Positions 11,212-27,576 of a stretch of DNA of 39,467 bases are shown piece after piece. The stretch lies in the UHGV virus genome UHGV-0285531, one strand, 5' to 3'. The translations under genes and the position numbers were made by a program. Numbering within the stretch: position 1 is the first letter of the stretch; each line of letters begins with the position of its first letter. The DNA is from a virus. The notes below the pieces were generated by a model. That model saw only the letters and a list, made by a program, of their open reading frames with translations, did not search any database and had not been told where the DNA came from.

Positions 11212-11471
11212 CGCAGATGGACTTAGAGAAGTTCCTCTTGATGCTTGATACTGAACGTGCTCGACTCATGCTGCAAGACTTGCGGGATGACACTAAGCGT
11301 TCACCTCAGCTTTACAACGCCATTGAGAAGCTACTGGCTCGTCACAACTTTGTGTTAAGCAAGGTGTCTGTGGACGAGAAGACGCTGGCTGATATGGAGG
11401 CCCTGAACGCAGAGTACGATAAGGTGCTTTCAGCGACTGAGGATAATGACACAGGGTATGGTGTTCAATAA
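11208..11471 (+). CDS. 18: terminase small subunit / DNA maturation protein A (T7 gp18-like)
   Basis: 87 aa; ATG overlaps holin stop; position between holin and Rz-like gene as in T7. Confidence 0.6.
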   Translation: MTQMDLEKFLLMLDTERARLMLQDLRDDTKRSPQLYNAIEKLLARHNFVLSKVSVDEKTLADMEALNAEYDKVLSATEDNDTGYGVQ

Positions 11472-11475
11472 GTGT

Positions 11476-11520
11476 TAGACTCAAGGTCATTACTATATGT
11501 AGTGGCCTTTATGGTTAACA
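11476..11520 (+). promoter_or_regulatory. conserved hairpin element, putative RNase III processing site (R18.5-like)
   Basis: tagactcaaggtcat-N12-gtggccttt; 8-bp stem (AAGGUCAU / GUGGCCUU with G-U pairs); one of three copies of the same element (also 19754 and 27515). Confidence 0.5.
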
Positions 11521-11572
11521 CTAACTAGTGGAGGCGACTCTACGTGAAATCTGATAAACCGGGAGGGCAACT

Positions 11573-12022: not shown

Positions 12023-13782
12023 GTAAAGACTTAGTGGCGCGTCAGGCGCTAATGACTGCCCGTATGAAGGCAGACTTCGTGTTCTTCCTGTTCGTCCTGT
12101 GGAAAGCTCTGTCACTACCCGTCCCGACTCGCTGTCAGATTGACATGGCGAAGAAACTATCGGCTGGGGACAACAGGCGTTTCATCCTACAGGCGTTCCG
12201 TGGTATCGGGAAGTCATTCATTACGTGCGCATTCGTGGTATGGAAACTGTGGAACAACCCAGACTTGAAGTTCATGATTGTGTCGGCCTCAAAGGAACGA
12301 GCCGATGCGAACTCCATCTTCATCAAGCGAATCATCGACCTCATGCCTCAGCTTCAGGAACTTAAACCTAAGCAGGGACAGCGAGATGCGGTTATCAGCT
12401 TCGACGTTGGGCCAGCCAAGCCAGACCACTCACCTTCGGTTAAGTCCGTTGGTATCACTGGTCAGTTGACTGGTAGTCGTGCTGACATCCTGATTGCCGA
12501 TGACGTTGAGGTTCCTAACAACTCAGCGACTCAGGCTGCACGAGACCGACTATCAGAGCTTGTGAAAGAGTTCGACGCTATCCTGAAGCCGGGAGGTACA
12601 ATCATCTATCTGGGCACTCCTCAGAACGAGATGACCCTGTATCGTGAGTTGGAAGGTCGTGGGTATACCACTACTATCTGGCCAGCTCGTTATCCACGTG
12701 ATAAGAAGGACTGGCAGTCCTACGGCGACCGTCTGTCTCCTATGCTTCAGGCAGAGCTGGAAGAGGACCCTGAGTCCTTCTACTGGCGTCCTACCGATGA
12801 AGTACGATTCGATGATACGGACCTGAAGGAACGTGAGCTGTCCTATGGTAAAGCTGGCTTCGCTCTACAGTTCATGCTTAACCCTAACCTGAGTGATGCC
12901 GAGAAGTACCCTCTGAAGCTCCGTGACCTTATCGTAGCAGACTTGGACCCAGCGTCTAGCCCAATGGTCTACCAATGGCTTCCTAACCCTCAGAACAAGC
13001 GTGAGGACGTTCCTAACGTTGGACTCATGGGTGACTCATACCACACGTATCAGACTGTAGGTTCTGCCTTCAGTTCGTACACCCAGAAGATTCTAGTCAT
13101 TGACCCTAGCGGTCGTGGTAAGGATGAAACTGGTTATGTGGTACTGTACCAGCTAAACGGCTACATCTTCGCTATGGAAGTTGGCGGTATGCGAGGTGGC
13201 TATGAAGACTCTACGCTGGAAGCCTTGGCTAAGATTGGTCGTAAGTGGAAGGTCAACGAATACGTCATTGAGGGTAACTTCGGTGATGGTATGTACCTTG
13301 AGCTATTCAAGCCTGTAGCTTCCCGTATTCATCCTGCTGCTGTAACTGAAGTGAAGAGTAAGGGTCAGAAGGAACTCCGCATCTGTGACGTTCTGGAGCC
13401 TATCATGGGGTCTCACCGACTTATCGTCAACGCTGCTGCTATCGTCCAAGATTACCAGTCTGCCTCTGATAAGGATGGTGTTCGTAATCCTATCTACTCT
13501 CTCTTCTACCAGATGACACGTATCTCTCGTGAACGTGGAGCATTGGCACATGATGACCGACTTGATGCGCTGGCTATCGGTGTACAGTTCTTCGTTGAGT
13601 CTATGGCGAAGGATGCCAACAAAGGCGAACGTGAAGTCACTGAGGAGTGGCTGGAAGAACAGATGGAGAACCCACGGAAAGGCTTCGAGTCCATCCACAC
13701 TGAGTTCTGGGACAATGGGGTCCGGGTAACTCACAATACGGACGACGAGCTGGGACTAGGGTCCTACGTTACGTTCCACTAG
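12019..13782 (+). CDS. 19: terminase large subunit (T7 gp19-like)
   Basis: 587 aa; TTG start at 12019 with AGGAGGT 7 nt upstream (alternatives GTG 12034, ATG 12052); strong recollected identity to T7 gp19 ([89 protein letters not shown]). Confidence 0.9.
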
Positions 13783-13876
13783 CTGAATGAATAACTATAG
13801 GCGAAAACTGAATTAATAAGTAGTTAGTAACCTATAGTTACTACCAGTCTAACCTACTGTTTTATAAGGAGTTTGG

Positions 13877-13899
13877 ACTTAACTATCACTATAGGGAAG
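13877..13899 (+). promoter_or_regulatory. phage RNAP promoter (phiOR-like), +1 G at 13894
   Basis: ggacttaactatcactatagggaagac, downstream of terminase, upstream of gp19.5-like ORF and genome right end. Confidence 0.75.
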
Positions 13900-14078
13900 A
13901 CCCCCGGTTACTTATAGTATTACTGTAGTGAATATACATATGCAGACTTTATGCAAGACCTTAGGAGGCAGACTCCGAGTTCTTACCTAAGGCTTGCACC
14001 GATGGAAGGAGGTGATATTAATCATAATACCTCCAATACAGATAGTCACCGACCATAGATACAGGAGGTATGTAGCAT

Positions 14079-14237
14079 ATGGCAAAGACCAAAGCTGTAC
14101 TTAAAGCTCTGGCGACCAATCGAGCTACATACAGGTTTCTTGCTACTGTTCTACTTGCTGCTGGCGTTACTGCTGGAAGTCAGTGGGTCGGGAGGGTCGA
14201 GACTCTCGTATGTTCTCTGGTGTCTCAGTGTAATTAA
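14079..14237 (+). CDS. small hydrophobic protein (T7 gp19.5 position)
   Basis: 52-aa ORF not in track (below size cutoff); ATG 14079 with AGGAGGT upstream; hydrophobic core LATVLLAAGVTAG; last ORF before terminal region. Confidence 0.35.
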   Translation: MAKTKAVLKALATNRATYRFLATVLLAAGVTAGSQWVGRVETLVCSLVSQCN

Positions 14238-14397
14238 CGCAATCATGGTAACGATTCATGAGAGGAAGACCTAAGGTCAGTTCATAGCTGACGCTACTCT
14301 ACTGACCTTAGCTACTGTAGTCAAGGACTTTAGGTAACACCTTAAGAGAAGCTCACTTAGGGTCATCCTACTTATTGGTCTATCCTAGTGTCGCCTG

Positions 14398-14436
14398 ACC
14401 TACGGTCCTTAACCTACAGTGGCTGTGGCCTACAGT
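14398..14436. repeat. short direct repeats (CCTACGG / CCTACAGT x3) near genome right end
   Basis: acctacgg..acctacagt..gcctacagt; analogous to T7 CCTAAAG-type heptamer arrays flanking the terminal repeat. Confidence 0.5.
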
Positions 14437-14474
14437 AGTGACGATGAGTTTTGGACCAAAAGTTTGAGACCACA

Positions 14475-14670
14475 TCTCACAGTTCAAGAACCTCAAGTCT
14501 CCCCCATAGGCCCTCTTTAAGTCCAGACCAAAGGCCCTACCCCAGTCTGTCATAAGGTTGGACCGATGGTCAAGACTTCAGGTCAACGATAGGTATAGGC
14601 TATGGCTTAGGGAAGGACGATAGGTAGGGGCTATAGGTCTGTCTCTGAGTCTCTATCTGTATAGTGTTAT
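14475..14670. repeat. genome terminus and direct terminal repeat (single collapsed copy); extent approximate
   Basis: tctcacagttcaagaacctcaagtctcccccatagg resembles the T7 left end as I recall it (TCTCACAGTGTACGG...CCCCCATAGG); noncoding; flanked on both sides by heptamer repeat arrays. Confidence 0.45.
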
Positions 14671-14684
14671 AGTATAACATTACG

Positions 14685-14757
14685 TCCTACACCTACAGTC
14701 TCACTAACCTACAGTCTCAACCATAAGACACCAACACCTACAGTCAGAGACCTACGG
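14685..14757. repeat. heptamer direct-repeat array (CCTACAC, CCTACAGTC x3, CCTACGG)
   Basis: tcctacacctacagtctcactaacctacagtctcaacc...acacctacagtcagagacctacgg; equivalent position to the T7 left-end CCTAAAG array. Confidence 0.6.
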
Positions 14758-14869
14758 TTAATAGACACAAAGGCTATAGACTTAAGGTCTAAGACATGTT
14801 AGTCAAAGACTATATCCTCTTACACCATGGGGCCGACGATAGCTTAATCAATATTATTTAAATAACCTA

Positions 14870-14898
14870 TTGACTATAGGTCCAGACTATGGCCTAAT
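14870..14898 (+). promoter_or_regulatory. candidate host sigma70 early promoter (A1-like)
   Basis: TTGACT at 14870-14875 preceded by AT-rich UP-like tract; 17-bp spacer then CCTAAT (poor -10); arrangement resembles T7 A1. Confidence 0.4.
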
Positions 14899-15009
14899 AG
14901 CTTCCGTCAACACGACACGGCAACAACCGGATAGTGAAGACGCCGGTCCGGTCCGGTTAAGTAGTCAGCCTGTAAGACATACGAACAACAGGCAACCGAC
15001 AGAAAGTAG

Positions 15010-15039
15010 TTGACAAGATGTAACGATAAGATGTAAGAT
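15010..15039 (+). promoter_or_regulatory. host sigma70 early promoter (A2/A3-like)
   Basis: TTGACA (15010-15015), 18-bp spacer, TAAGAT (15034-15039), followed by GTACCACAT as in T7 A3 by recollection. Confidence 0.55.
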
Positions 15040-15163
15040 GTACCACATCGAAACAACGGTGATGACCAACACTGAAACGGTCTACCTGAAGTCCTCTGAC
15101 TGAAGGGAATGCTCTTTAACAATCTGGATAAACTCTTAATGTGCGCCGATAGCGACTAACTAC

Positions 15164-15210
15164 AGGGCCTTTGAGTCTACATCTGAAGGCCCTGACTGAT
15201 AGTCACTAAC
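15164..15210 (+). promoter_or_regulatory. hairpin plus GACTGATAGTCACTAAC box, putative RNase III site (R0.3-like)
   Basis: AGGGCCTT-N14-AAGGCCCT perfect 8-bp inverted repeat followed by gactgatagtcactaac; related copies at 15487 and 16048. Confidence 0.5.
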
Positions 15211-15226
15211 TTAAAGGATGGACACT

Positions 15227-15472
15227 ATGAAACACTTAAGCACAATCACTAATCACAATGAAGTATTCGTGAACACTAAAGGTTATGCGTGGATTCAGCT
15301 TAAAGAGATGACAGGAGCGCGTCACCGTGTGGTAGTGCGCAAGGTCTCAAGCAAGCCGTTCAGCAACTACAGCGTAGATACTGTGCGTATAGACAACGAG
15401 ACCTACCTGATAGACTCGCAGATAACCGTGAGTCCTACAGCGGGCGTCTCAGCTCCTTATTTCGCTAACTGA
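15227..15472 (+). CDS. hypothetical early protein, first gene of the early operon (upstream of ocr)
   Basis: Track ORF 15218-15472; preferred start ATG 15227 (AAGGA 8 nt upstream); 81 aa; no homologue recognised. Confidence 0.55.
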   Translation: MKHLSTITNHNEVFVNTKGYAWIQLKEMTGARHRVVVRKVSSKPFSNYSVDTVRIDNETYLIDSQITVSPTAGVSAPYFAN

Positions 15473-15486
15473 GAGTGATTAACTAC

Positions 15487-15527
15487 AGGTCGTTAGACTC
15501 ATAGCGGCCTGACTGATAGTCACTAAC
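15487..15527 (+). promoter_or_regulatory. hairpin plus GACTGATAGTCACTAAC box, putative RNase III site
   Basis: AGGUCG-N12-CGGCCU stem then gactgatagtcactaac; near-duplicate of element at 15164. Confidence 0.5.
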
Positions 15528-15555
15528 ACATACTTAACTTTGAGAGGATATAACT

Positions 15556-15891
15556 ATGGAACGTAACGCTAACGCATACTATGAGCTGCTGGCTGCAACC
15601 GTTGAGCTGTTCAATGAGCGTATTCAGTGCGACGAAATAGCTGAAGGCGATGACTACAGCGATGCGCTACATGAGGTCGTAGACGGTAATGTTCCGCACT
15701 ATTACCACGAGATTTTCACGGTGATGGCTGCTGATGGTATTGACCATGAGTTCGAAGACTCTGGGCTGATGCCTGAGACCAAGGACGTAACGCGTATACT
15801 ACAAGCTCGCATCTATGAGGCACTGTATAACGATGTGTCTAATAGCTCTGAGGTGGTCTGGTTTGAGGCTGAAGAGGAGGACTGCGAGTGA
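15556..15891 (+). CDS. ocr: Ocr, DNA-mimic anti-restriction protein (T7 gp0.3-like)
   Basis: 111 aa, acidic; motif block VPHYYHEIFTVMAADGIDHEFEDSGLMPETKDVTRILQARIYEAL closely matches recollected T7 Ocr; RBS GAGAGGA. Confidence 0.88.
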   Translation: MERNANAYYELLAATVELFNERIQCDEIAEGDDYSDALHEVVDGNVPHYYHEIFTVMAADGIDHEFEDSGLMPETKDVTRILQARIYEALYNDVSNSSEVVWFEAEEEDCE

Positions 15892-16040
15892 TGGTAACTT
15901 ATGGTCTCTGCCAGCACCACGTCACCATCGCCCGGCTTATGGTCAAGACCGGGCGATTAAACCACGAGGAGTCTATGCGTCTCCTGAAGGTGGTCTATAA
16001 GCGCCGCAAACGTATGCACGACAGCTTACACACTGAGTGA
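15891..16040 (+). CDS. hypothetical small basic protein (49 aa), start overlapping ocr stop
   Basis: ATGA overlap with ocr stop; not in track (short); competes with 61-aa alternate-frame track ORF 15815-16000. Confidence 0.3.
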   Translation: MVTYGLCQHHVTIARLMVKTGRLNHEESMRLLKVVYKRRKRMHDSLHTE

Positions 16041-16047
16041 TAGACGA

Positions 16048-16072
16048 GAGGTCACGACTGATAGGTGGCCTC
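16048..16072 (+). promoter_or_regulatory. hairpin with GACTGATAG loop, putative RNase III site
   Basis: GAGGUCAC-gacugauag-GUGGCCUC, 8-bp stem including one G-U pair. Confidence 0.45.
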
Positions 16073-16105
16073 AAAGATTATCACTTAAATTGATAGGAGT
16101 TAACT

Positions 16106-16195
16106 ATGAACATCGGTTACTGGGTATGTCTAGCGCCAGTTATCTTGATGATAGGTTATGGGGTATACGATTGTATTAAACGGAAATCACTATGA
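16106..16195 (+). CDS. hypothetical 29-aa hydrophobic micro-protein
   Basis: ATG 16106 after TAGGAG; MNIGYWVCLAPVILMIGYGVYDCIKRKSL; stop overlaps next ATG (ATGA). Confidence 0.3.
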   Translation: MNIGYWVCLAPVILMIGYGVYDCIKRKSL

Positions 16196-16389
16196 TATCT
16201 GCATTATTGATAGCCATAGGCTATGGACTTATCGCCTACGTGCTGGTGAGAGACATCAACAAAGCTCGTAAAGTCTATAAATTCAACTATGTACGTCTGG
16301 GCCGCTGGACTGTACGTCAACCTAACGGACGATTTATGCGCAACTTAGCGAACGTCTGGGATATAGCAACTATTGGGAGCAAACTGTAA
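16192..16389 (+). CDS. hypothetical early membrane protein (65 aa)
   Basis: N-terminal hydrophobic helix ISALLIAIGYGLIAYVLV then basic region; translationally coupled to neighbours. Confidence 0.5.
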   Translation: MISALLIAIGYGLIAYVLVRDINKARKVYKFNYVRLGRWTVRQPNGRFMRNLANVWDIATIGSKL

Positions 16390-16649
16390 TGAAAACCGTA
16401 TACATTAACAAACCATCTATCCGTAGCCGTGTAGAGCAAATAGAGCGTGACGTGTTCTTACATCGCCGCATGGAGGCTGAGGGCCATAAGTACGAACTGA
16501 TGTGTCTGGCGTATGGTGGACGACCGATCACTGACGATGGTAAACTTTTAGTCTCAGGCTGGAAGGCGCTAGACCATCGGTCAGCCATCAAGCACACGAC
16601 TCACGGTGACTTCAGTCATCTTCACGCTAACCCACTGATATGCAAGTAA
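16389..16649 (+). CDS. hypothetical early protein (86 aa)
   Basis: ATG overlaps upstream stop (TAATG); no homologue recognised. Confidence 0.5.
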   Translation: MKTVYINKPSIRSRVEQIERDVFLHRRMEAEGHKYELMCLAYGGRPITDDGKLLVSGWKALDHRSAIKHTTHGDFSHLHANPLICK

Positions 16650-16654
16650 TTATG

Positions 16655-16677
16655 ACTTAACTATCACTATAGGACTC
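16655..16677 (+). promoter_or_regulatory. phage RNAP promoter immediately upstream of the RNAP gene, +1 G at 16672
   Basis: gacttaactatcactataggact; full consensus core; ~74 nt upstream of the RNAP start codon. Confidence 0.7.
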
Positions 16678-16745
16678 AAGGTCTAAGACTCCAAGTGAAA
16701 GACCAAAGAGATTTAAGTGAAAGACTAATAACAAGGACTTTAAGT

Positions 16746-19427
16746 ATGAGCGTCATCTCTATTGATAAACACGACTTCTCTGATGTGTCGAACGCCATTG
16801 AGCCGTTTAACCTGCTGGCAGACCACTACGGGCAAGACCTTGCAGTCAAACAGCTTCAGCTTGAGCATGAGGCCTACACAGAAGGCGAGCGACGTTTCAT
16901 CAAGAACCTTGAGCGCCAGACCGAGCGCGGGGAACTGGCAGACAATCAGGTCGCCAAGCCTTTGATGCAGACTCTGGTGCCTAAGATTGCGCAAGCAGTC
17001 AAGGAGTGGCACGAAGGCCAAGACGGGAAGCTGTCAACCTCTCGTCCTAGCGTAGCGTTCACCACGTTGAGCACTGAAGAGAAGGCCGTCAAGGACCGCT
17101 CTATGCGCATCTCCTGTGAGTCCGCTGCGGTTATCATACTGAAGGTCATACTCTCCAAGCTGGTCAAGCCTGAAGGGGTACCGATTACACCTATGGCCTC
17201 AGCGTTAGGTCGCACACTTGAGGACGAAATCCGCTTCGGTCGCATCCGTGACAAGGAGAAGGAGCACTTCAAGAAGGCGATAGCTGAGAACCTGAACAAG
17301 CGAGCTGGGGCATCCTACAAGAAAGCCTACATGCAAGCTGTAGAGGCATCCATGCTGGAGCAAGGCCAACTGGAAGATGCGTGGGGGACTTGGAGTCCGA
17401 CCGAAGCGGTGCACGTTGGCATCAAGATGCTCGAGATTGTCATCCAGTCCACACAACTGGTCGAGCTTAAGCGTTATGGTGCTGGCAATGCGGCGGCTGA
17501 CGTTGAGATGGTCCACCTGTCAGACTTCTGGGTAAAGAAGATGGCACAACGTGGATTCAGCCTTGCGGGTATTGCGCCAGTCTATCAGCCTTGCGTCGTT
17601 CCACCTAAACCGTGGACTGGTGTAGTAGGCGGTGGGTACTGGGCCAAAGGTCGCAGACCGTTACCATTGATTCGCTTAGGGTCTAAGTCTGCGGTAGCAC
17701 GTTATGAAGACGTGTACATGCCTGAAGTCTATGACGCTGTGAACATCATTCAAAATACACCTTGGAAAGTGAACAAGAAGGTATTGAACGTGGTGAACAT
17801 GGTCGAGAAGCTGAACAACACGCCTATTGATGACATCCCTCAGATGGAACCGCTGAAGCCTGAGGACTATGCTGGTGAGACCGAGGAGGAACTCAAGGCA
17901 TGGAAGAAGGCTGCTGCTGGTATCTATCGCCGCGAGAAGGCCCGACAGTCACGCAGATTATCACTGAGCTTTATCATCAACCAAGCGAATAAGTTCTCTC
18001 AGTTCAAGGCCATCTGGTTTCCATACAACATGGACTGGCGCGGTCGAGTCTACGCTGTGCCGATGTTCAACCCTCAGGGTAACGACATGCAGAAGGGTCT
18101 CCTGACTCTGGCAGTCGGTAAGCCTATTGGTGCTGACGGTTTCAAATGGCTGAAGGTCCATGGTGCAAACTGCGCGGGTGTTGATAAAGTCACCTTCGAG
18201 GAGCGCATCAAGTGGGTGGAAGACAACCACGAAAACATCATGGCTGCTGCTAAGGCACCGATGGATAGTATTGAGTGGTGGGGCAAGTTAGACTCTCCGT
18301 TCTGCTTCCTTGCGTTCTGCTTCGAGTATGCTGGCGTAATGCACCACGGCCTGTCTTACTCCTGCTCGCTGCCGATAGCGTTCGATGGGTCCTGCTCTGG
18401 TATTCAGCACTTCAGTGCGATGCTTCGTGACCACATCGGTGGCCATGCAGTAAACCTGACGCCATCCGGCATGGTACAAGACATCTACCGCATTGTGTCT
18501 GACCGCATTGAGGAGGAGCTTAAAGTCCTGCTGATTAACGGTACTGACAACGAGATGGTCACTCACGAGGATAAGAAAACTGGTGAGATTACCGAACGTA
18601 TCAAGCTGGGGACACGAGAGCTGGCCCGTCAGTGGCTGACATACGGTATGTCACGCAAGGTCACTAAGCGTTCAGTCATGACTCTGGCATACGGGTCGAA
18701 AGAGTACGGCTTCGCAGACCAAGTTTACGAGGACATCGTGATGCCAGCGATTGACTCAGGGTCTGGCGCTATGTTCACAGAGCCAAGCCAAGCGTCCCGC
18801 TTCATGGCTAAGATGATTTGGGAAGCTGTGAGCGTGACCGTAGTTGCTGCGGTTGACGCGATGAAGTGGCTTCAAGGTGCTGCCAAGCTGCTGGCTGCTG
18901 AAGTGAAGGACAAGAAGACTGGAGAAATCCTGAAGCCTTGCCTTCCGGTACACTGGGTAACACCTGATGGTTTCCCGGTCTGGCAGGAATACCGCAAGAA
19001 GGATACCACTCGTCTGAACCTGATGTTCTTAGGGTCATTCAACCTTCAACCTACGGTCAACAAAGGTATGAAGAAAGAGCTGGACAAGCACAAGCAGGAG
19101 TCAGGCATTAGCCCGAACTTCGTCCACTCACAAGATGGTAGCCACCTACGCAAGACTGTAGTCCACACGCATCGCAAGTATGGCGTGATGTCATTCGCAG
19201 TGATTCACGATAGCTTCGGGACCATCCCGGCTGACGCTGAGTATCTGTTCCGTGGTGTCCGTGAGACGATGGTCGAGACCTACCGCGACAACGATGTGCT
19301 GCTTGACTTCTACGAGCAGTTTGAATACCAGCTTCATGAGAGCCAGCGCGACAAGTTGCCTGAGCTTCCGAAGAAAGGTAAACTGAATATCGAGGACATC
19401 TTGTCTTCAGACTTTGCATTCGCTTAA
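16746..19427 (+). CDS. 1: single-subunit DNA-dependent RNA polymerase (T7 gp1-like)
   Basis: Track ORF 16695 (GTG) to 19427; preferred ATG 16746 (MSVISIDKHDFSD..., AAGGA upstream) giving 893 aa; extensive recollected identity to T7 RNAP incl. WFPYNMDWRGRVYAV, AFDGSCSGIQHFSAMLRD, NFVHSQDGSHLRKTV, IHDSFGT, C-terminal FAFA. Confidence 0.97.
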   Translation: MSVISIDKHDFSDVSNAIEPFNLLADHYGQDLAVKQLQLEHEAYTEGERRFIKNLERQTERGELADNQVAKPLMQTLVPKIAQAVKEWHEGQDGKLSTSRPSVAFTTLSTEEKAVKDRSMRISCESAAVIILKVILSKLVKPEGVPITPMASALGRTLEDEIRFGRIRDKEKEHFKKAIAENLNKRAGASYKKAYMQAVEASMLEQGQLEDAWGTWSPTEAVHVGIKMLEIVIQSTQLVELKRYGAGNAAADVEMVHLSDFWVKKMAQRGFSLAGIAPVYQPCVVPPKPWTGVVGGGYWAKGRRPLPLIRLGSKSAVARYEDVYMPEVYDAVNIIQNTPWKVNKKVLNVVNMVEKLNNTPIDDIPQMEPLKPEDYAGETEEELKAWKKAAAGIYRREKARQSRRLSLSFIINQANKFSQFKAIWFPYNMDWRGRVYAVPMFNPQGNDMQKGLLTLAVGKPIGADGFKWLKVHGANCAGVDKVTFEERIKWVEDNHENIMAAAKAPMDSIEWWGKLDSPFCFLAFCFEYAGVMHHGLSYSCSLPIAFDGSCSGIQHFSAMLRDHIGGHAVNLTPSGMVQDIYRIVSDRIEEELKVLLINGTDNEMVTHEDKKTGEITERIKLGTRELARQWLTYGMSRKVTKRSVMTLAYGSKEYGFADQVYEDIVMPAIDSGSGAMFTEPSQASRFMAKMIWEAVSVTVVAAVDAMKWLQGAAKLLAAEVKDKKTGEILKPCLPVHWVTPDGFPVWQEYRKKDTTRLNLMFLGSFNLQPTVNKGMKKELDKHKQESGISPNFVHSQDGSHLRKTVVHTHRKYGVMSFAVIHDSFGTIPADAEYLFRGVRETMVETYRDNDVLLDFYEQFEYQLHESQRDKLPELPKKGKLNIEDILSSDFAFA

Positions 19428-19732: not shown

Positions 19733-19755
19733 CCTAAACTATCACTATAGGATTA
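19733..19755 (+). promoter_or_regulatory. phage RNAP promoter (phi1.1-like), +1 G at 19750
   Basis: ccctaaactatcactataggatt. Confidence 0.75.
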
Positions 19756-19800
19756 GACTCAAGGTCATGACTCAAAGTCGTGGCCTTCATGATTAACCCT
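19754..19800 (+). promoter_or_regulatory. conserved hairpin element, putative RNase III site (R1.1-like)
   Basis: tagactcaaggtcat-N11-gtggccttcatgattaaccc; second copy of the 11476 element. Confidence 0.5.
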
Positions 19801-19825
19801 AACTCATTCAATCAGGAGCTACACC

Positions 19826-27348: not shown

Positions 27349-27513
27349 GTGTTAAAGAAACTTAAAGCTCGATACCATCGGTTCATGTACAAATGGTGGA
27401 GTGACGAAGCAACCTTCCTGTCCAACATTCTGGGAGACCAGAGGTTCGACTCTAAGGCATGGAAGAAAGCTAACCGGAAGTTTATGTATCACTTCTTGCG
27501 TACAGACTTCTAG
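27349..27513 (+). CDS. hypothetical small basic protein (gp4.x position); start uncertain
   Basis: Track ORF 27313-27513 (GTG); in-frame GTG 27349 has ACGGAGGA upstream. Confidence 0.35.
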   Translation: MLKKLKARYHRFMYKWWSDEATFLSNILGDQRFDSKAWKKANRKFMYHFLRTDF

Positions 27514-27514
27514 G

Positions 27515-27560
27515 TCTAGACTCAAGGTCATTCACATCGAGTGGCCTTTATGATTAGACT
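27515..27560 (+). promoter_or_regulatory. conserved hairpin element, putative RNase III site (R4.7-like)
   Basis: tagactcaaggtcat-N9-gtggcctttatgattagac; third copy of the element. Confidence 0.5.
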
Positions 27561-27576
27561 AAACGGAGGATTAACC

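Follow-up and report, generated by a model that had tools for sequence, protein, structure and literature searches.

The genome UHGV-0285531, a 39,467-nucleotide (nt) stretch of viral DNA that was analyzed in full and is referred to here as the window, carries six small genes immediately upstream of the gene for the phage RNA polymerase (RNAP). The question raised by this locus is whether these genes form an early island of anti-defense and host-takeover functions, as proposed in a first-pass annotation, and which of their products could have such functions. A 2-kb segment around the six genes is 94 to 97% identical at the nucleotide level to Kayfunavirus (K1F-type) coliphages (96% for K1F itself). 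It has matches in 275 phage records, which in 66 cases span at least 80% of the segment. In the K1F record AM084414, the block is annotated as genes 0.2, 0.3, 0.35, 0.36, 0.37, and 0.38, followed by gene 1, while the same genes are labeled "hypothetical" in other records. The gene arrangement is, thus, not new and has been publicly annotated for about 20 years; functional studies of gp0.2, gp0.36, gp0.37, and gp0.38 were not found in the searchable literature. Overall, it is highly probable that the region represents the early (class I) operon of a Kayfunavirus of the K1F type. For comparison, we used the window and 25 distinct relatives (26 loci).

All six open reading frames (ORFs) are present on the plus strand with exactly the coordinates and sizes proposed by the first-pass annotation, and T7 has, as stated there, no annotated gene upstream of gene 0.3. 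Across the relatives, the ratio of nonsynonymous to synonymous substitutions (dN/dS) was 0.16 to 0.53 in frame for all six ORFs compared with ~0.8 to 3 in the shifted frames and 0.07 for the RNAP gene, which served as a control; for gene 0.2, the in-frame value is based on two informative pairs only and comes with no shifted-frame value. These values support that all six ORFs, including the smallest of 29 amino acids (aa), are genes under purifying selection. The AAGGA Shine-Dalgarno (SD) sequence of gene 0.2 (15214 to 15218) overlaps with an alternative ATG at 15218, and members of the gp0.2 family begin with MKHLS; therefore, 15227 is the correct start of the 81-aa ORF. Stop and start codons overlap at the junctions ocr/0.35 (TGATG, 15889 to 15893), 0.36/0.37 (ATGA), and 0.37/0.38 (TAATG), while 0.2 is separated from ocr by 83 nt, 0.35 from 0.36 by 65 nt, and 0.38 from gene 1 by 96 nt. 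Thus, the description of the region as a translationally coupled block applies to these three junctions but, because of the 83- and 65-nt gaps, not to the block as a single unit.

A conserved hairpin had been suggested to precede each gene. We identified one ahead of only three of the six genes, i.e., 0.2, ocr, and 0.36 (hairpins A, B, and C, respectively), while the three coupled junctions as well as the leader of gene 1 folded no better than shuffled sequence. Hairpins A, B, and C align with the RNase III sites R0.3, R0.5, and R1 of T7, with which they share an upper stem, an asymmetric internal loop, and a lower stem. Using an alignment of 24 distinct copies from the Kayfunavirus clade, T7-type phages, and the annotated T3 stem-loops, RNAalifold predicted 15 pairs, of which 10 showed compensatory double changes. 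A covariance model built from this alignment yielded six strong matches in the window, among them the three early hairpins and each on the coding strand; in a survey of 29 loci, 96 of 96 matches were on the coding strand. The model recovered R0.3, R0.5, R1, and R1.1 of T7 and R0.3, R0.5, and R1 of T3, some of which were part of the training alignment, while T7 R1.1 was not. The same search detected no RNase III-type site before gene 1. A scan of positions 13780 to 17000 against Rfam at E ≤ 1 returned no family, and Rfam evidently does not cover the RNase III sites of T7 phages. The structural and covariance data argue that hairpins A, B, and C are T7-type RNase III processing sites homologous to those of T7 and T3. 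In T7, host RNase III cuts the early polycistronic RNA. By analogy, the early RNA of this phage would be cut into three messages carrying 0.2, ocr-0.35, and 0.36-0.37-0.38, the last one probably together with gene 1. The three remaining sites in the window, none of which was in the training set, are located at 11467 to 11527 (58 bits), 19745 to 19805 (38 bits), and 27509 to 27565 (44 bits); a phage promoter (19735 to 19751) immediately precedes the hairpin at 19745.

The positions of the hairpins are informative about gene 0.2, which is present in 5 of the 26 loci. Loci lacking 0.2 have one hairpin directly ahead of ocr, while loci with 0.2 have the order hairpin A, 0.2, hairpin B, and ocr. 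Three loci contain an unrelated 58-aa gene at the position of 0.2, again together with a second hairpin, and one has the order hairpin, 92-aa gene, hairpin, 0.2, hairpin, and ocr. Hairpins A and B have 3' arms that are identical at 20 of 20 positions (15191 to 15210 and 15508 to 15527; repeat family D7), and immediately after this shared arm, the sequences diverge into the leader of either 0.2 or ocr. Such a junction would be expected from recombination between the arms. Similar layouts occur outside the clade. The first early gene of a Klebsiella T7-like phage encodes the gp0.2 homolog and has a hairpin predicted by the model on either side. A T7-type locus (L036) has the order hairpin, ocr-0.4, hairpin, 94-aa gene, hairpin, 66-aa gene, hairpin, and 0.5, and the product of its 94-aa gene is 51% identical (E = 4e-33) to that of the 92-aa cassette upstream of ocr in the Kayfunavirus locus. 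These observations suggest that gene 0.2 is a mobile accessory cassette that is bounded by RNase III-type hairpins and lies outside the conserved backbone; most likely, such cassettes are gained and lost by recombination between the identical 3' arms of the hairpins. We found no description of this modularity of the early operon in the searchable literature, which is not proof of novelty.

The distribution of gp0.2 extends well beyond the T7-like phages. Homologs were identified in 119 phage records from four phage groups, and a second deep search with a diverse profile yielded 70 protein clusters, none of which is named and all of which are on phage-sized contigs. Homologs outside the T7-like phages are 35 to 75% identical. 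In phiKT, the gene is located directly after, and coupled to, a gene of the S-adenosylmethionine (SAM) lyase family; in the N4-like Gamaleyavirus, it lies in the early block upstream of RNAP1; and in Phapecoctavirus and matching metagenomic contigs of ~140 kb, it is part of arrays of small genes. In two of these contigs, the array also contains a gene of the T7 gp1.1 family (PF08200; L045 4218 to 4370 and L046 4577 to 4729), and, therefore, several small early genes of the T7 type circulate among myoviruses with large genomes.

The second gene with informative relatives is 0.35. Its 49-aa product is ~33 to 36% identical to T7 gp0.4 in pairwise comparisons (36% over 39 aa by BLAST). T7 gp0.4 matches phrog_5058, the PHROG family of gp0.35, at E = 9e-5, and gp0.35 matches phrog_7202 at E = 0.018. 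Comparison of the two family profiles, built from 13 and 8 sequences, using hhalign gave a probability of 91.5 to 92% (E ~7e-7; 40 columns), while controls with reversed, 40 column-shuffled, and unrelated family profiles reached at most 2.5%. The gene also has the position of T7 gene 0.4, i.e., directly after ocr with overlapping stop and start codons (in T7, position 1278 is shared by the end of 0.3 and the start of 0.4). These data support that gp0.35 is a diverged member of the T7 gp0.4 family. The first-pass annotation had included the 49-aa protein among the uncharacterized genes and had named clear homology to characterized T7 early proteins of known, unrelated function as evidence against its reading. 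Such homology was found for this one protein, which would be a cell division inhibitor of the gp0.4 family rather than an anti-defense factor; the 65-aa protein is a homolog of T3 gp0.6 (see below).

A 2026 study reported that V15, V22, W28, M32, L35, and Y39 of Gp0.4 are required for inhibition of FtsZ, while A12, T14, L16, S19, and R23 touch the immune sensor CapRel(Ebc). Based on the profile alignment, five of the six FtsZ-contact residues are identical in gp0.35 and invariant or nearly so in its family, while none of the five CapRel-contact residues is identical (Fisher test, P ~0.01 for the comparison of the two sets). This pattern of kept FtsZ contacts and replaced CapRel contacts suggests how an effector could escape an immune sensor yet keep its target. 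Dhanoa et al. observed that K1F mislocalizes FtsZ and causes filamentation of cells, and reported that, by BLAST, K1F lacks gene 0.4, the responsible peptide being unknown. Because the syntenic gp0.35 appears to be a diverged gp0.4, this statement is corrected: gp0.35 is likely the "unknown" division inhibitor of K1F and most likely sequesters FtsZ and, in this way, stops cell division. One relative (L014 1828 to 2360) contains two copies of gene 0.35, one of which is frameshifted after ~25 codons, suggesting a recent duplication and decay in this slot.

Gene 0.3 could be assigned more directly. Its product matches PF08684 with 109.9 bits (cutoff, 25 bits; E = 9.3e-32), is 52% identical to T7 Ocr over 101 aa, and has a DNA-like acidity with an isoelectric point (pI) of 4.05 and a net charge of −24 over 111 aa. 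Thus, it belongs to the Ocr family and is predicted to be a DNA-mimic anti-restriction protein. Two forms of Ocr occur among close relatives, a short form of 110 to 114 aa as in the window and a long form of 166 to 169 aa as in K1F, in which a 58-aa insert is located just ahead of the C-terminal EEDCE (L001 1114 to 1623).

The two genes downstream of hairpin C are predicted to encode membrane proteins. The 29-aa gp0.36 is preceded by the SD sequence TAGGAG, has a dN/dS of 0.19 over 10 pairs, and is moderately hydrophobic (maximum 19-residue hydropathy, 1.74), consistent with a conserved membrane peptide. It is unrelated to the 55-aa gp0.36 of K1F, and several relatives contain both genes in tandem. 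gp0.37, found in 25 of the 26 loci, is 40% identical to T3 gp0.6 over 60 aa (E = 1e-9) and resembles it in hydropathy (2.35 at residues 1 to 19 versus 1.95) and pI (11.0 versus 10.5). It is a T3 gp0.6 homolog with a predicted N-terminal transmembrane (TM) helix and a basic tail. Thus, of the five genes around ocr that had been described as uncharacterized, the 49-aa gene belongs to the characterized gp0.4 family and the 65-aa gene to the T3 gp0.6 family, which has only a name, and all five are annotated in AM084414; the description remains apt for the 81- and 86-aa genes in that both are still orphans.

Table 1. Genes, hairpins, and promoters of the early region of UHGV-0285531 (MFE, minimum free energy)
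Feature	Position	Strand	Remarks
Host promoter candidate, sigma-70 type	15010..15039	+	TTGACA-18-TAAGAT; consensus scan 10/12; resembles T7 A2
Hairpin A	15147..15212	+	Before 0.2; MFE −25.6 kcal/mol, z −4.4; covariance model 63.7 bits
Gene 0.2	15227..15472	+	81 aa; phrog_10124; 97.5% identical to K1F gp0.2
Hairpin B	15470..15529	+	Before ocr; MFE −23.8 kcal/mol, z −3.75; covariance model 66.5 bits
Gene 0.3 (ocr)	15556..15891	+	111 aa, short form; PF08684
Gene 0.35	15891..16040	+	49 aa; predicted diverged member of T7 gp0.4 family
Hairpin C	16032..16090	+	Before 0.36; MFE −20.1 kcal/mol, z −4.0; covariance model 58.7 bits; aligns with T7 R0.5
Gene 0.36 (window type)	16106..16195	+	29-aa hydrophobic peptide
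Gene 0.37	16192..16389	+	65 aa; T3 gp0.6 homolog
Gene 0.38	16389..16649	+	86 aa; orphan; phrog_7066
Phage promoter consensus, exact copy	16657..16673	+	TTAACTATCACTATAGG; ~90 nt upstream of gene 1
Gene 1, phage RNAP	16746..19427	+	From ORF list; ATG at 16746, MSVISIDKHDF...; annotated in K1F; downstream boundary of the block

The window seems to represent a complete, circularly permuted genome of ~39.5 kb, in which the large terminase gene ends at 13782 and position 1 (left end) of K1F maps near 14445. An ORF for a gp19.5-like protein of 52 aa is located at 14079 to 14237 and a copy of the phage promoter at 13879 to 13895. In the window, a stop codon divides the 71-aa "gp0.1" ORF, which is annotated in K1F and SR04, into pieces of 21 and 47 aa (14796 to 15013); this ORF, which overlaps with the host promoter region, is probably not a gene.

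The phage promoter occurs at 12 sites in the window compared with 0.07 expected. Allowing up to two mismatches, a copy is located ~91 to 97 nt upstream of gene 1 in 21 of the 25 relatives. While T7 and T3 carry the RNase III site R1 in the leader of gene 1, the Kayfunavirus clade lacks R1 and has a phage promoter instead; a promoter at this position would let the polymerase amplify expression of its own gene.

In agreement with the first-pass annotation, we detected no gp0.7-like kinase, the best tblastn match in the whole window having an E value of 4.2. Because the gp0.7 kinase is now recognized as a broad anti-defense factor, its absence here is biologically meaningful. Seven relatives (L017, L018, L020, L021, L022, L025, and L027) have a gp0.7-type kinase of 242 to 244 aa (phrog_15752/2828; e.g., L022 2482 to 3216) that stops right after the kinase domain, lacks the shutoff domain, and is encoded between the 0.35 slot and 0.36-0.38. 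Thus, the absence of the kinase is a polymorphism at the level of the clade and not peculiar to this phage. JSS1_004, considered as a possible relative of the window genes, is a gp0.7 homolog and was rejected. The position of ocr is also variable and is, in some relatives, occupied by a gene for a T3-type SAM lyase (phrog_2226) or a protein of 142 to 174 aa without known function. In four relatives (L017, L019, L022, and L025), an ORF of 140 to 144 aa (cluster c15; e.g., L022 3567 to 4001) lies between 0.37 and 0.38; judged by eye from its Cys/His pattern, it encodes a putative HNH-type endonuclease. These data support that the region is the first-expressed slot of a T7-like phage, driven by host promoters and containing Ocr. 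With Ocr, the T3-type SAM lyase, and the gp0.7-type kinase all part of the mosaic in relatives, they also support that the slot hosts anti-restriction and anti-defense functions. The label "early anti-defense/host-takeover island" is, therefore, fair for the slot, as established for T7-like phages.

gp0.38 has a distribution very different from that of gp0.2. Its family comprises 224 phage records, nearly all from T7-like phages of ~40 kb, and 126 clusters at 90% identity; an exhaustive profile search among 1.84 billion representatives returned 12 clusters at 50% identity, all of the same family. The gene is near-universal in the clade (26 loci) and always the last one ahead of gene 1. The AlphaFold2 (AF2) model has three helices and a low-confidence tail (mean predicted local distance difference test [pLDDT], 68), and the motif TTxGDF[ST]HLH in this tail is the most conserved part of the family and kept in its remotest members. 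Many homologs are longer (108, 130, and 139 aa) because of N-terminal extensions (e.g., P0084, P0085, and P0114), one type of which contains a conserved FTDKNGVEWKYVGxDSRGRNYWEKTG segment; these may be longer isoforms or reflect other start calls. A match of the gp0.38 tail to a 56-kb "Enterobacter phage" was discarded as a frameshift-riddled Kayfunavirus assembly.

Structure prediction and remote homology searches, as suggested by the first-pass annotation, left gp0.2 and gp0.38 without a detectable relative of known function or fold. The AF2 model of gp0.2 consists of six beta strands (pLDDT, 71) and had no informative match in fold searches, with Foldseek returning only uncharacterized small Autographiviridae proteins from BFVD (E ≥ 1.2e-3); for gp0.38, fold and sequence searches were similarly uninformative. 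Sequence-profile searches of PDB gave nothing below E = 0.19, and NCBIfam and PADLOC gave no match. Neither protein has sequence or fold similarity to any characterized anti-defense protein or annotated family, and both are absent from the EVADES catalogue and from the set of 200 accessory genes in the screen of Silas et al., as checked with positive controls; that screen included no protein of the window.

What gp0.2 and the genes of the last message do can be explained in several ways. The first possibility, to which we give slightly less than an even chance, is that gp0.2, gp0.36, gp0.37, and gp0.38 are takeover factors for host physiology (division, envelope, transcription, or metabolism) without a role in defense and, like T7 gp0.4, raise burst size or competitiveness. 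In this case, they would be in keeping with their neighbor gp0.35 as a gp0.4 homolog; gp0.36 and gp0.37 are predicted membrane-anchored peptides that resemble T7 gp0.5 in hydropathy, and T3 shares gp0.37. Nearly all loci of the clade encode gp0.37 and gp0.38, and gp0.38 has an invariant motif that appears to be unstructured, a feature typical of segments that contact a conserved partner in the host. However, no target is known for any of the four proteins, and the patchy, cross-family distribution of gp0.2 fits better with conditional usefulness.

Second, gp0.2 and/or gp0.38 could be new anti-defense proteins acting beside Ocr in the first minutes of infection, as the first-pass annotation proposed for the 81- and 86-aa products, with host shutoff as the other option. 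We consider this possible, although somewhat doubtful. Nothing directly links either protein to defense, and a role of this type, while plausible, rests on position and distribution. Gene 0.2 is the first gene to enter the cell and be expressed, ahead of ocr; it is accessory; its homologs have spread to the early regions of Klebsiella T7-like phages, phiKT, N4-like Gamaleyavirus, and Phapecoctavirus; and in phiKT, its partner is an anti-restriction gene. The same slot holds Ocr, SAM lyase, or kinase in relatives, and a phage without the broad anti-defense kinase may compensate for its absence. There is also a precedent in orf24, a small early gene of another ocr accessory region that interacts with host immunity (Silas et al.). 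Against this possibility, neither protein resembles a catalogued anti-defense protein or was among the genes screened, and gp0.38 is clade-conserved and always beside gene 1, which is not the pattern of an arms race. In addition, gp0.4 and gp0.6, the characterized T7 neighbors in the slot, target the host cytoskeleton and not defense. Altogether, the case for anti-defense is reasonable for gp0.2, which is accessory, mobile, beside anti-restriction genes, and first expressed, and weaker for gp0.38, for which a core role in takeover fits better.

A more far-reaching proposal combines these elements. In this proposal, the RNase III hairpins double as recombination joints, making the early operon an array of exchangeable single-gene cassettes; gp0.2, the first protein made and shared with N4-like and rV5-like phages, is a new broad-range anti-defense or immune-evasion factor; and gp0.35 has kept its FtsZ-binding face and shed the surface sensed by CapRel. 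As a whole, we consider this combination unlikely.

A third explanation concerns gp0.38 alone, i.e., that it is a stand-alone, diverged version of the C-terminal, DNA-binding shutoff domain of gp0.7. T7 and T3 have this domain and lack 0.38, while Kayfunavirus-type loci have 0.38 and, if they have a kinase, one of 244 aa consisting of the kinase only (in the sampled genomes); moreover, both the domain and gp0.38 are encoded immediately upstream of gene 1. The profile-profile comparison, however, gave a probability of 0.2%, gp0.38 does not match the kinase PHROG 2828, and the gene order differs, with 0.36 and 0.37 separating 0.38 from the kinase gene. Therefore, we rejected this explanation as very improbable. 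Profile comparisons also gave no link of any family in the window to T3 gp0.65 or T7 gp0.6A. Finally, that some of the small ORFs, chiefly the 29-aa one, occur by chance is hardly credible: although they are very short, K1F has the different 55-aa ORF at the position of 0.36, and SR04 leaves the 29-aa ORF unannotated, the dN/dS values are low for all six in frame and 0.19 for the 29-aa ORF, which also has a strong SD sequence, has an ATGA overlap with 0.37, and is kept in about two-thirds of the relatives.

Returning to the interpretation of the region as a K1F-type early operon, the events in the infected cell can be pictured from T7 biology as follows. Host RNAP would transcribe the block from A-type promoters as the DNA enters, and RNase III would cut the polycistronic RNA at the three hairpins into three messages. 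Genes within one message would be translationally coupled, as indicated by the overlapping start and stop codons observed. Ocr, as a DNA mimic, would block restriction; gp0.35, as a diverged gp0.4, would sequester FtsZ and halt division; and two small membrane proteins, the 29-aa peptide and the T3 gp0.6 homolog, would be made. Gene 0.2 would represent one of several unrelated single-gene cassettes between duplicated hairpins that are swapped via the identical 3' arms.

Several points weigh against parts of this interpretation. The pairwise BLAST comparison of gp0.35 and gp0.4 is not significant by itself (E = 0.006 to 0.08), and the two families are shallow (effective number of sequences, ~1.4). 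The essential W28 of T7 Gp0.4 is replaced in gp0.35 by a His that is invariant, and the FtsZ phenotype of K1F has not been mapped to any gene. Recombination between hairpins is deduced only from the cassette boundaries, and RNase III cleavage, transcripts, and translation in this phage are predicted from the sequence. Lastly, the models of gp0.2 and gp0.38 are of moderate confidence, making the absence of fold matches weak evidence.

The newer points, i.e., the placement of gp0.35 in the gp0.4 family with a conserved target and a diverged sensor surface, the hairpin-bounded cassettes, and the cross-family spread of gp0.2, are modest, and none of them would be very surprising to a T7 specialist. 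Nevertheless, the assignment of gp0.35 makes the question of FtsZ in K1F testable, and the pattern of FtsZ and CapRel residues indicates how a phage effector may escape an immune sensor with its target kept. The cassette layout offers a simple way to locate accessory early genes of T7-like phages, and gp0.2 and gp0.38 are short, well-defined candidates that have been missing from anti-defense screens so far. Because K1F-type phages are used therapeutically against K1 Escherichia coli, knowledge of their early toolkit is also of practical value.

Among known systems, the early region of K1F (AM084414 and DQ111067) is closest and agrees with the window in gene order, junctions, hairpins, and the promoter ahead of gene 1, with identities of 97.5% for gp0.2, 84% for gp0.35, 95% for gp0.37, and 92% for gp0.38. 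It differs in that Ocr is 169 aa in K1F, with the 58-aa insert, versus 111 aa here, in that 0.36 is the unrelated 55-aa gene in K1F versus the 29-aa gene here, and in that the "gp0.1" ORF of K1F is broken here. The T7 operon (0.3, 0.4, 0.5, 0.6, 0.7, and 1, with R0.3, R0.5, and R1) likewise has host promoters followed by Ocr and a coupled gene of the gp0.4 family; downstream lie an RNase III site, genes for small hydrophobic or basic proteins, and gene 1. The hairpins of the two operons are homologous. In contrast to T7, the locus described here has the extra, hairpin-bounded 0.2 before ocr, lacks a gp0.6A homolog, the gp0.7 kinase, and R1, has a phage promoter before gene 1, and encodes gp0.38, which has no counterpart in T7. 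T3 gp0.6 has the same length of 65 aa as gp0.37, has the same predicted TM helix and basic tail, and is likewise encoded downstream of an RNase III site of the early operon; the next genes in T3 are 0.65 and the kinase gene, while 0.37 is followed by 0.38. T7 Gp0.4, an FtsZ inhibitor and trigger of CapRel(Ebc), is 51 aa compared with 49 aa for gp0.35, in which the equivalents of V15, V22, M32, L35, and Y39 are kept, W28 is replaced by His, and all five CapRel-contact residues differ. Finally, as in the accessory regions described by Silas et al., variable small genes lie between conserved anchors and co-occur with Ocr or SAM lyase; the locus differs from those regions in that the cassette boundaries coincide with RNase III-type hairpins.

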